A stretch of 63,249 bases of DNA, filler included, from Folioceros fuciformis (lineage: Eukaryota), in assembly GCA_049999805.1 (NCBI GenBank). It is 26 parts of 26 records of this genome, joined end to end, with 100 filler letters (N's around TTAATTAATTAA, not from the genome) between each part and the next. Parts side by side here need not be neighbours in the genome. Positions count along the whole stretch, not along the records: positions 61,388 to 63,249 come from JBNGIO010000828.1; 25 more parts are not named here. The stretch is one strand, 5' to 3'. Below are positions 57,866-63,249 of this stretch, piece after piece (position 1 is the stretch's first letter; each line of letters starts with the position of its first letter). The position numbers and the translations under genes were made by a program. The notes below the pieces were generated by a model that worked only from the letters and a program-made list of their open reading frames with translations, was not told the DNA's origin and ran no database searches.

Positions 57866-60800
57866 TGTTAAGGTGGAATAGTTTTCTTTTAAACTAACTC
57901 GGTGGGTTAGTCTAACTTAACTAGGGTTAGACCAGGCCAAGTATATAAAGATACACACAAATACCTTTTTATTATTCAATATACAATTTTTGATATAAGC
58001 TTCTGCTTTTCCAAACATGGTATCAGAGCCATGGATTTTTCTTTTTCTGAAATTGCTCTTGATAATGAGAGAATAGATCTACTGTTTAGGTGGTCTTTAG
58101 ATCCTTGGTTCTAGAAACTTCTTTTATGAAAATTTGTAATGGCAAGAGGTAGAGGTCTCCGGCCTCTAGTGTTTGTCTTTCAGCCTTCTCCTAATCTGAG
58201 TACACGAGTGAAGCAGGCTGCTAGAAAACCTGGAGTCTGGGGTGATACTCTGTCCTCCACAGTAGATTACGTTAGATTTGCTCAAAAGGGGTTTAAGCAA
58301 TCTTTCTCTTGTAATCAAAATCCTACGAGGAGGTCAACGAGAAAGTTATGCTACAAACCTATGTGCTCACAATCCTTGCGAACTGGAATTCTGTCAACAG
58401 ATTTCGGCTGTGATCCATGAATCCCTAGTCCCTATCCATGATTTGAGGCAGGTTGTGAGCAGGATTGTGGAGCTTCTTCTTCAATTCAATGGAGAGGTGT
58501 GCAGTAGACTCACAGTGATTGAAGATCTTCTGGAACAGAATTCTGTGGCAATTTCAGCACTATCTTCTCGGCAAGGACAGGTTCACAGTGATTTCTCTGT
58601 TCGTGATCAAGTGGCTGCGATGTATCTGCCTTCGATGAAGCCATCTCGCTCTGGGCGAGATGCCCCTCTTCTGTGAAGAATATTGAGATCTGGAGGGACG
58701 CGCGTCGTGGCGGGAATAACTAATTTTGTGATTCGCCTCTGGACGCTGCCCCTGCTAGGTGTGGTTTGCAGAATCGGATCGGTGTGTGGGTGATTGGCTT
58801 TGGGAATTCTACTACCACATGTTCATGTTGCGCTTCAGCCTCGAGTCCATCGCGATGAGGCGCTGTAACTTGTCGTTTCGATACTTTACTTTTTAAGTTG
58901 GCGTTTCGTCCCTTGTGTTTAAGTTGTCGATTCGGCCTCCGTTCGTTTCGTTTTTAAGTTCCTTTTTTATAAAACAACTTAAGTTGAGGTTTTGTTTAAG
59001 AAAAGGAATTTCGAATAGTTTTCTATAAGTCTAGTTTTGAGAGGTAGCTTACCTTTTGCTAGATTGTGCATGTCTGCCTCTTCTTCAAGTAGTGAGTCTG
59101 ACTTTGTAGTTGAGTATGATCCTACGGACATATATGCCTCCACTGATTTAGAAGCTGAAGAACAAGTCAGATTACATGCACAAGTCACACAATCACTTTT
59201 GAGCTAGCACACTTGAGAGCTAGTTTTGTTCTCCCTTCTCCACGTGTACACTCAATACCTCCTATTTCTCCTATCATGGCAACTCTAGGAACTACATATT
59301 CTGGAGAGTTTAAAGAAAAGGACTAGTTTGATGCAAAAGCTTCCCATTTTGAGTGCTGGCGTGGCCGGATGCAAGCCTTCTTGGATGCCAGAGATGTGTG
59401 GGAGTATGTCGACGCTTCTCTTCCCAAACCTGATCTTTCAAATCTAGGTGTCACGCAAGGCATGGTGGATAAGTGGAGAAAGGGAAATAAAATAGCTTTT
59501 GCTATTCTGCTCTCAGGCTTAGATGAAACAACTGTTATTGAGGTAGAGTCCTTACCTACAACTGCCGATGTTTGGAAGCAGCTCAAGGATACATATCAAG
59601 TGCAGAACATTCTCACCCTTATGCATGCGAGAAATGAGTTCTATGGCCTGAAGTTGCGTCATGGAGATCCAGTGGGACCACATATTGTGAAGTTCCGCCA
59701 TCTACGTTCCCAATTAGCAGCTCTTGGATGCACTATGACCGAAGTGGATGTAGTTGCTCAATTGCTTTCTAGCTTACCAGCTTCTTATCAGAACTTCGTG
59801 TCAAGATAAAATACCTCCATTCGAGCATCTTATCAAGTTGTGAGTGCTGGTAAACCTTCCCTTATAACATTGAATGACTTGATTGGGGCTCTCCTGCAAG
59901 AGGAACAGAGCCACCAGAAGTCATGGCCTTCATCTCGCCTCCGGGTAGAGAAGGTGCTTTACGTTTCGAAAGGAAAGGGACTAGGGCACAACAATAAGAA
60001 TAAGAAAGGGAGGAGTTCATCCAGCCAATCTTCTGCTCCTCCTGTTAAGCGCCAGGGCGCCTGCAATTGGCATCAAATCCATGGGCATTGGGAGCGTGAT
60101 TGCAGGAAGAAAAAAGCAGGTGAGCCTAAGAAGGAGGCTTGCCCTTTGGCTCATGTTAGTACCAAGGGAGCACCTTCTGGACAACAGCAACATAAAAGCA
60201 GCAGTGCTATGTTGACTGTGTGTCTCATCTCAAGCAAGGAGAATTCATCTATGCGGTTTGTGGATTCTGGATCTACTTCACATATTTGCAATAACAGGAA
60301 GCTATTTTCTAAGTTCAGCTATCAATCACCTTTTCATACTGTCTATGCTGGTGATTCTAGAGGACTTGAAGTGGAGGATAGTGGTCAGGCTAGCATACCT
60401 TTGCTAGATGGCATTAGTTTGCAACTCTTTGATGTGTTGTATGTACCTACCATGAGTAAGAATTTGCTTTCTGTTAGAGCAGTCACTTCTACTGGTGACT
60501 TTGGCTTTAGCTTTGAACATGGGCATTGTTACATATATAGAATACACTTGCCATGGGAATACGTTGCTGAAGCTACCTTAGTTGATGATTTGTATCAGCT
60601 AGATCCTTCTCCTACTACCTCTCTTAGTGCCCAAGCTCTAGTGGCATCTTCTTCTCTTCAAGCTAGTTTGTGGCATGCGCGTTTAGGTCATGTCAATAAG
60701 GCTAAGCTTAATCTCATGTCTCACTCAAGCTGCTATCGTGAGAAGCTGCCTCCTTGCTTCAAGCACCTTGCTTCCTGCAGTGCGTGTATTTTGTCTAAGC

Positions 60801-61287
60801 AAAAGGAGCTTCCTTTCCAAAATCAAATGGCAACTCGGGCCAAAACAATCTTGGAGCTGATACATGCAGATTTGGCGGGGAAATTTCCAGTGAAGTCACT
60901 TGGTGGGTCTGAGTATTACCTCTCTCTAATAGATGATTATTCACGTTATACATGGACTTTTCCGCTGCAACTGAAGAGTGATGTTTTTGAGCATATTTCC
61001 TCTTGGATTACTATGGTTCAAAGACAAACAGGGCATTTGGTTAAGTGCTTTTGCATGGATAATGGTGGAGAATTTACTGGACATAGGTTTGATGACCTCT
61101 TTCAACATTATGGGATTATTCGCCAACTTTCTGTTGCATATACTCAACAACAAAATGGAGTTGCGGAGAGGAAGAATCAAACCTTGATGGGGATGACTAG
61201 AAGTATGTTGGCTTGGGCAAGACTTCCCAAATCCTTTTGGGCTGAGGCAGTAGTTGCAGCTACCTATATTCTGAATAGGATTGTCAC
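57866..61287 (+). mobile_element. Nested Ty1/copia: 152-bp LTR (57866-58017), PBS (58018-58029), extra ORF (58139-58676), gag (from about 59276), protease, integrase
   Basis: TGTT...AACA then TGGTATCAGAGC. Motifs LDARDVWEYV, VDSGSTSHIC, LELIHADL, DNGGEF and QNGVAERKN. Confidence 0.93.
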
Positions 61288-61392
61288 NNNNNNNNNNNNN
61301 NNNNNNNNNNNNNNNNNNNNNNNNNNNNNNNTTAATTAATTAANNNNNNNNNNNNNNNNNNNNNNNNNNNNNNNNNNNNNNNNNNNNGAATG

Positions 61393-61607
61393 CGTGAGTT
61401 AATCGTTTCTAGGACACGTGAGTTAATCGTTTTCGGAATGCGTGAGTTAATCGTTTCTGGGACACGTGAGTTAATCGTTTCCGGGAAGTGTGAGTTAATC
61501 GTTTCTGGGACGCGTGAGTTAATCATTTTCGGGACGCGTGAGTTAATCGATTCTGGGGCACGTGAGTTAATCGTTTTCGGGATGCGTGAGTTAATGGTTC
61601 TGGGACA
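61393..61607. repeat. 24-bp minisatellite (CGTGAGTTAATCGTTTCTGGGACA), 9 visible copies
   Basis: Head-to-tail units with no spacers, truncated by the gap on the left. Confidence 0.93.
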
Positions 61608-61993
61608 AAATATTTGACAGGCATCATAAACTATATTATGTTAATCGTTTCTGAAACGAAATGTTTGACGTGCATCATAAATTATATAACGTAACAGCAG
61701 TTCTTACATATTTTTATCTATGACCATTTATTTTTACTGAACCCTACCCTTGCGACCTTTCCCCCCTCCCCTACCCTTGGGAGCTTTTGAGAACTGTACG
61801 GGAAACCCTGCAGCCTTCATGCAGCTCAAGCTCTTTCTCAAATGCTTCTGTATCGGATGCGTCTGCAGGCTTGGCATTCTAGGTTAGCGAATTTGGTATT
61901 ACCTCGTCTGGCTGCTGGCCCGGGGCCAGCAAGGGTTGTATGTTGTAATAGGTAAGCTGCCCTCTCTGGGCCGAGGTTTCAAGTGAGTGTGTT

Positions 61994-62300
61994 GCGCAGC
62001 ATGCATGATCGAAAAAACAGATGGAGATACAACATTTTCTCAAAGCTTTCGAGCGAACCTGGAGGCTGAGGTCTCATGGAAGAAACTGGTGACCGACTGA
62101 CTCGGATTCCAAGAATCTGTGGTTCTGCCGCTCGACTGCCGCTCCATTTGGCTATCCTATAGCGAGCGCAGCGCAGCATGCATGATCTAAAAAACAGACG
62201 GAAGTACAAAATTTTCTCAAAGCTTTCGAGCGATCCCGGAGGCTGAGGCTGAGGTCTCATGGAAGAAACTGGTGACCGACTGACTCGGACTCCAAGAATC
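61994..62300. repeat. Direct duplication of about 125 bp (about 61994-62117 and 62171-62300)
   Basis: GCGCAGCATGCATGATC...GGAAGAAACTGGTGACCGACTGACTCGGA occurs twice. Confidence 0.88.
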
Positions 62301-62677
62301 GGACGAGTGTGTCCGAGGGGAAACAATTTGCTTTGTTGCGCACGTCCTCTCTGGTTTGTCGAACTGTAAACAGCGTATCACCGGCGTTCCGTTTTCGGTC
62401 CAAGAGAAAATTTGCAGGGAATTGTATGACCGCGAGAGTTGTGTAGATATGTGCCTAATGACGGACTCGAAGACGGAAGAGAAGGAAGCACGCATGAACA
62501 GGAGGTAGAAGGCAGACACAGACAGCAAGCACCCTGCATTGCCTTGCCTTACCTTGATGATCCGTTCCTTTCCCCATCCAGGGCCCTATGCGTCAGGGGT
62601 TAGGGTCCGAAATGGAATGGGGGTAGCGTGGGTGGAGGGCTAGGGCTGGGGTCCAAGCCTTTTGTCAATGGCCATCC

Positions 62678-63249
62678 CTACAGACTACAGGAACAGGAGC
62701 CGTCGAAGAAGCGATGAATTCGATTCGCATCTCTGACAATAATTTCTCGGCTCTCGAGGCGTGACATCACTTTGGTGCTGCTGTGGCAGTCGTCGCACAT
62801 GCGCAGGTTTTTGGTGACAATGAGGGTTGCCCCATCCGGCGTGTTCATGAGGCCATAGGCCAAGGCCAGTTTTTCGGCGTGTCCACACAGCGCGTCTTCC
62901 TTCTCCTTCTCGGACACCGCCTTGAAGACGAGGCGAGTTTGCGGGACATGGCCACCTTCCTCCCTCAACCTCCAATTCAGGCTCTTCGCCTTGGAGGAGA
63001 TGTCGGACCTGTCTTCCCCCACGGTGAACTCATGCACGGTGTTGCTCACCTCGATGCATGCCTTTGCTGGCTTCTTGGTGGCACCTACTGACTTCCTCAG
63101 CCCTTCCACCCTGTCCACATCGTCCCACCTGCCTGCGTTTGCGTACAGGTTCCCCAACAACACGTAGGAACTAGCAGCTCGAGGTGCCAATTTCACGAGG
63201 TGCTGGAAGCAGCGTTGCCCGCGCTCTACATCACCGTAGCTCTTGCAAG
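62678..63249 (-). CDS. 3' end of a PLS-class PPR RNA-editing factor: E1/E2 motifs and DYW:KP deaminase-like domain
   Basis: CKSYGDVERG..SSYVLLGNLYANAGRW (E motifs), KKPAKACIEV in place of the PG box, HAEKLA, KNLRMCDDCH and HRFFDGSCSC. The frame is open past the window end. Confidence 0.93.
   Translation of the reverse strand, partial: CKSYGDVERGQRCFQHLVKLAPRAASSYVLLGNLYANAGRWDDVDRVEGLRKSVGATKKPAKACIEVSNTVHEFTVGEDRSDISSKAKSLNWRLREEGGHVPQTRLVFKAVSEKEKEDALCGHAEKLALAYGLMNTPDGATLIVTKNLRMCDDCHSSTKVMSRLESREIIVRDANRIHRFFDGSCSCSL

Follow-up and report, generated by a model that had tools for sequence, protein, structure and literature searches.

Near the end of the window, by which we mean the whole stretch of DNA analyzed (63,249 bases, filler included), lies the 3′ end of a PPR gene. 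It raises the question of which type of RNA editing enzyme this gene encodes and whether the enzyme is still in working order. No enzymes other than DYW:KP domains, the class named in the initial annotation, are known to convert U to C in RNA, and such domains are in development as programmable editors. Our main reading, which we regard as moderately probable, is the 3′ end of a nuclear PLS-class PPR gene of the DYW:KP type that is still working or has been impaired recently.

The gene end and the class of its domain

The coding part is one open frame on the minus strand (Table 1). Its stop, TAG, occupies 62678-62680, and at the other end the frame continues past the edge of the window. The PPR array and the N-terminus of the gene fall outside, past base 63249, and the E1 and E2 motifs alone lie inside. 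Since residues 528-714 of a 718-residue relative (P0002) align to the window frame, about 530 residues, or roughly 1.6 kb, are expected upstream of it. Two run contigs that begin at 62965 extend beyond the edge of the window, X1 record 8 (1283 letters) and X2 record 16 (1262 letters). Pfam matched the E_motif at residues 4-65 (E 3.2e-15) and the DYW_deaminase family at residues 99-188 (E 1.1e-35; 121.7 bits against a cut-off of 24), E-values that place the joint observation far beyond chance. The E1/E2 part was also aligned to the synthetic PPR-DYW protein 9kfx, from residue 419 of the latter onward. A tblastn search of the whole window found no second DYW or PPR copy elsewhere in it.

Table 1. 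Features of the gene end, in positions of the window
Feature	Position	Strand	Basis
PPR gene 3′ end, 189 codons + stop	62678..63247	-	frame scan, Pfam
E1 (nearly whole) and E2 PPR-like motifs, residues 1-58	63074..63247	-	Pfam E_motif, 9kfx alignment
DYW:KP deaminase-like domain, residues 59-189 (131 residues)	62681..63073	-	Pfam, tree, profiles
KPAKA, KP box in place of PG box, residues 59-63	63059..63073	-	script check
HAEKLA, residues 123-128	62864..62881	-	script check
His123 catalytic zinc ligand, Ala124 KP-specific, Glu125 catalytic	within 62864..62881	-	
Lys146, taken as Lys88 of DYW:KP and Lys915 of OTP86	62810..62812	-	invariant lysine column
CDDCH, residues 151-155: Cys151 and Cys154 catalytic zinc, His155 second zinc	62783..62797	-	
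His178 to Cys185-Ser-Cys187, remaining structural-zinc ligands	62687..62716	-	offsets to OTP86
CSC, residues 185-187	62687..62695	-	script check
7-base tandem copy, CTGTAGT then CTGTAGG	62677..62690	-	script check

The initial annotation had described KPAKA in the place of the PGxSW box, HAEKLA instead of HSE(K/R)LA, and intact HxE and CxxC zinc ligands. All of these are present in the translated frame, the zinc signature as H123, E125, C151, and C154. Its motif name KPAxA appears to be its own, as a search of papers found no use of that name alongside DYW. The residues line up by constant offsets with those of OTP86: H892, C920, and C923 of the catalytic zinc site correspond to window H123, C151, and C154, the glutamate E894 to E125, the active-site lysine K915 to K146, and the structural zinc ligands H924, H947, C954, and C956 to H155, H178, C185, and C187. 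K146, located in TKNLRMC, is the sole lysine column that is invariant in all 33 aligned KP rows. It is position 88 when K59 is counted as 1, and hence probably the equivalent of Lys88.

DYW:KP domains are defined by a Lys-Pro pair that takes the place of the Pro-Gly of PG domains in the N-terminal box (PMC11845758, PMC11332814). Ahead of the domain, a PLS-type PPR array with P2-L2-S2-E1-E2 is expected. Ala or Cys follows their zinc histidine, giving HAE and not HSE, and the alanine in HAE is KP-specific. Their C-terminal tails are diverse, and loss of xHP is reported for most of them. The window domain lacks the xHP insert, showing a 4-residue gap against the SHPQ stretch of the PG-type 9kfx, and it lacks the DYW tripeptide at its C-terminus, where the protein ends CSCSL.

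A search of longer proteins gave 147 matches among 902 candidates, and the figures below rest on the 120 matches listed. HAE[K/R]LA and a box resembling KKPAKA, most often KKPAKA itself, occur in every one of the best 32 (73-49% identity) and in a fern protein further down the match list (P0042). The remaining matches listed are HSE and PG-type proteins, mostly of seed plants. A maximum-likelihood tree was built from the last 142 residues of 117 matches and the window, 118 rows in all; P0069, P0079, and P0115 were left out since they did not fit the HxE/C-terminus pattern. The KP clade holds 36 of the 118 rows with an SH-aLRT of 96, namely 33 HAE sequences, two HSE sequences (P0033 and the fern P0038), and the window, and every one of the 82 rows in the other part of the tree is HSE. 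The two groups were labeled in this analysis by HAE or HSE and the tree, not by a published reference set. Profiles were made from the KP and PG sets with the window kept out of training. The window domain scored 229.3 bits with the KP profile and 153.5 with the PG profile, a difference of +75.8; the KP-minus-PG scores ranged from +26 to +89 in the 35 KP sequences and from -33 to -105 in the 82 PG sequences. At the 56 columns where at least 29 of the 32 KP relatives agree, the window differs twice and conservatively (M for L, I for V), and the relatives themselves depart 0 to 7 times each.

By tree and profiles, then, the domain is a genuine DYW:KP member. The class membership proposed in the initial annotation held, and so did its view of the domain as a further member of an established class; the grouping with PG sequences, named beforehand as the outcome that would speak against it, was found in neither the tree nor the profiles.

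The same annotation placed the source genome among hornworts, ferns, or lycophytes, which agrees with the literature on where DYW:KP occurs. The lineage can likely be narrowed, as the closest relatives bear tails of the DRH and GRP kinds. According to PMC9478123, hornwort KP proteins come in two variants, called DRH and GRP after the three residues at their C-terminus, and those of tracheophytes form clusters separate from them. Within the KP clade, the window sits in a group of 18 rows (support 89) whose members end GDRH or GGRP, and its closest tree relatives, 54-73% identical over the 189 residues, end GDRH. The named fern proteins, from Adiantum and Ceratopteris, share 44-48% identity with the window protein and lie elsewhere in the clade. 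A hornwort-type origin is therefore quite probable, resting on these relatives and the published tail description, not on labeled sequences. The window protein ends in SL and not in the Asp-Arg-His that defines the DRH variant, so that the tree places it beside this variant while its name-giving feature does not file it there. No protein more than 73% identical was found among the 120 longer matches listed and 10 near-length matches, which indicates that the product of this gene is not in the protein collection searched.

The DRH variant of hornwort DYW:KP was reported by Gerke et al. 2020 and Gutmann et al. 2020, as cited in PMC9478123. Like that variant, the window has HAEKLA, CSC, and no xHP insert, and the KKPAKAC box and KNLRMCxDCH are common to both. 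Unlike it, the window protein stops at SL after CSC.

The shortened tail and the near-copy

The tail, which the initial annotation did not mention, ends two residues past C-x-C. In the 33 HAE relatives, four residues follow C-x-C in 31, six in one, and two in one, a fern protein; among 9 shorter matches reaching the C-terminus, none has a two-residue tail. A 7-base tandem copy sits exactly at the tail, with CTGTAGT at 62684-62690 and CTGTAGG at 62677-62683 on the coding strand and one mismatch between the copies. It shifts the frame and yields the stop. Shifted by one base, the frame reads V-C-R-D-G-H-stop, with RDGH-stop reaching down to 62665, and with one 7-base unit removed the gene would end C-S-C-R-D-G-H. 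In the tails of the relatives, Asp is second in 27 of 32 and His fourth in 15 of 32. The chance of Asp, His, and a stop at those three places in a random frame is about 5 in 100,000, assuming uniform codons. Because the shifted-frame RDGH-stop fits the family tail, we conclude that a DRH-like tail was cut short by the 7-base duplication. We also considered an assembly slip as the source of the extra copy. It was ruled out by contigs of three runs from two studies (X1 record 5, X2 record 13, and X3 record 20), one of which may be the assembly's own source, as these span the duplication without an indel. The run contigs contain no indels between 62403 and 63249.

Runs X1-X3 also hold alternative contigs with 14 single-base differences in the coding part. 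The variant letters of this near-copy fall at window positions 62740-62964 and 63193-63202, and those at 62740-62824 and 62860-62964 distinguish it from the window's copy. Translated singly, the differences are 12 missense, one nonsense (K114 to stop), and one synonymous, and the missense changes include H155Q, which loses a zinc ligand, and G122R beside the catalytic histidine. Seven columns at which at least 28 of the 32 relatives agree have the family residue in the window but another one in the near-copy; G122, A128, A130, L142, I169, and the zinc ligand H155 are among them. Nearly all the differences between the two copies thus fall on the near-copy, not on the copy in the window. The near-copy is, judging from these changes, a decaying allele or paralogue. 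In X2 and X3, both forms are covered to a similar depth. X3 record 20 carries both the variant letters and the 7-base duplication with 0 gaps, a hint that the duplication predates the split of the two copies and that the window's copy has been conserved since, although this record could be a mosaic. Run X1 is guessed to be RNA; it also covers the non-coding flank at 62077-62677, which makes it uninformative on transcription. As a side observation, 62860-62964 holds seven of the near-copy changes, and on the plus strand five of them read C to T.

The one unusual feature of this KP member is the tail shortened by the 7-base duplication, and it poses a small, testable question on the role of the C-terminal residues in KP enzymes. 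In the PG-type OTP86, the aspartate and the tryptophan of the tail matter for activity; GRP-type tails are without that aspartate, yet edit. It is possible, if doubtful, that the window encodes a constrained natural KP enzyme without the last two tail residues and that the DRH-type tail is dispensable for KP-type editing. This reading relies on the premise that the sister copy also has the duplication and has decayed since, with the window's copy conserved over the same time. If true, the locus would be a natural experiment on that tail with its aspartate and its last residue, both of which are important in PG domains.

The tail can also be read the other way. In a pseudogene or dead fragment, the 7-base duplication or damage upstream would have inactivated the gene, and the conservation would reflect how recent that event was. 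A frameshifting tandem copy that truncates a tail of known importance in PG-type domains fits this, and so does the company of a near-copy in the same runs that has a stop at K114 and has lost the zinc ligand His155. The gene also sits on an unplaced contig that is short (at least 1862 bases) and is one of the 26 strung together with spacers in the window, and according to the literature PPR families in these plants grow by dispersed duplication. We nevertheless consider a dead gene rather unlikely. The 189 codons run without a stop or frameshift, the two conservative departures at the 56 conserved columns lie inside the 0 to 7 of the relatives, and the differences between the copies are nearly all on the other copy. 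X3 record 20, unless mosaic, puts the duplication before the split and the conservation of the window's copy after it. The loss of the tail itself may also be tolerable, given the editing by GRP-type tails without aspartate and the two fern KP-clade proteins that likewise end two residues after CxC.

Expected activity of the domain

The preferred reading of a DYW:KP gene that works or was recently impaired would follow the mechanism of its class, and every residue that the model of this mechanism needs is present in the window protein. The E1 and E2 motifs are followed by a DYW:KP-type deaminase-like domain that is nearest to the hornwort DRH and GRP variants. If the gene behaves as its class does, the upstream PPR array would recognize a single transcript of the chloroplast or the mitochondrion, the protein being presumably targeted to that organelle. 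A uridine four bases past the last PLS triplet would be placed in the zinc site of His123, Cys151, and Cys154, with Glu125 nearby. The 7-base tandem duplication has swapped the four-residue tail of the family for two residues. As all zinc ligands and catalytic residues are retained, we expect the protein to be functional still, or impaired only lately.

The U-to-C direction is carried over from the class. U-to-C conversion in E. coli has been shown for the designer proteins KP2, KP3, and KP6 (PMC9478123), and HAA and AxxA mutants of KP designers have their editing abolished. Lys88 is required: K88 mutants lose U-to-C editing, and a Schiff-base crosslink between lysine and uridine has been proposed. 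The edited base is four nucleotides after the last PLS triplet. Like the GRP-type KP2 and KP3 and the fern-type KP6 (PMC9478123, PMC11845758), the window has HAE, CxxC, and, by our numbering, Lys88. Those designers are active consensus designs of 133 residues, whereas the window domain is a natural one of 131 residues read from sequence, and it lies closer to the DRH group. The DRH-based designer KP1 was not reported to be active and is not among the three active designers (PMC9478123), so no DRH-type domain has demonstrated editing. Activity is yet to be demonstrated for natural KP members, the DRH group especially. Calling the window protein a U-to-C enzyme is thus reasoning by class, and activity in this direction is what its membership would predict.

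The DYW:PG structures OTP86 (7o4e), DYW1 (7w86), and synthetic PPR-DYW (9kfx) share the deaminase fold signature with the window, and both zinc sites and the active-site lysine line up with it by constant offsets. Unlike them, the window has KP for the PG box, HAE for HSE, no xHP, and no DYW tripeptide. The reaction expected for its domain, by analogy, would be the reverse of theirs.

The direction of a KP domain can be shifted. KP6 can edit C to U too, and in human cells it works in both directions. Its direction changes with a few substitutions: E64G-L113V-F133H turns it into a C-to-U-only enzyme, and K88A gives nearly full C-to-U. By our inferred numbering, Gly64 and Val113 of the window domain are residues that shifted KP6 toward C-to-U. 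Together with the DRH-based designer without U-to-C activity, these residues could suggest a working editing factor that is C-to-U or bidirectional, not dedicated to U-to-C. We find this improbable. Gly64 and Val113 are the natural KP consensus, and the KP6 mutations went toward it; under the same numbering, Cys6, Thr17, and Ala116 are present too, which shifted KP6 toward U-to-C. Lys88 and HAE are kept as well, and published accounts confine the KP class to lineages with U-to-C editing. A canonical DYW:PG C-to-U factor with chance changes in the PG box and HxE has next to no likelihood: the overall fold family is the same and the best solved-structure matches (9kfx, 7w86, and 7o4e) are all PG-type, but this reading is contradicted by the tree, which splits the window from all 82 PG rows, by the profile scores, and by the absence from the window of PG, HSE, xHP, and the DYW terminus alike.

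Taken as a working or recently impaired DYW:KP gene, the locus enlarges a class known since 2020. PLS-class PPR genes are very numerous in hornworts, lycophytes, and ferns, so one more member adds little.

Setting of the gene in the window

The window consists of 26 pieces of 1007-8907 bases joined by 25 identical 100-base spacers (between 1666 and 61387, for example at 61288-61387). Each spacer reads N44-TTAATTAATTAA-N44; all six frames of this linker contain stops. The DYW gene's piece is 61388-63249 only. Because adjacency across the spacers is artificial, the gene neighborhood is uninformative for the DYW gene, and any other reading of the window that leans on adjoining pieces needs revisiting.

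Domains of copia- and gypsy-type retrotransposons (RVT_2, rve, gag, Pol_BBD, aspartyl protease, integrase, and RT) were found in 18 of 29 long frames. Such fragments occur in many pieces across 4834-61290, mostly cut by stops or spacers, the longest being 59810-61290. A retrotransposon-rich setting for the DYW gene was considered and dropped, since the fragments lie in other spacer-joined pieces.

Repeats also occur inside the gene's own piece. A tandem array at 61390-61607 has a 24/48-base unit in about 9 and 4.6 copies (79-89% matches), and after it a 51-base unit is repeated twice at 61590-61687. Downstream of the stop of the gene, a direct repeat of about 125-130 bases with 89% identity occupies 61994-62117 and 62171-62300. 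The read depth of the flank rises to thousands in places, indicating that the flank repeat is a dispersed repeat.
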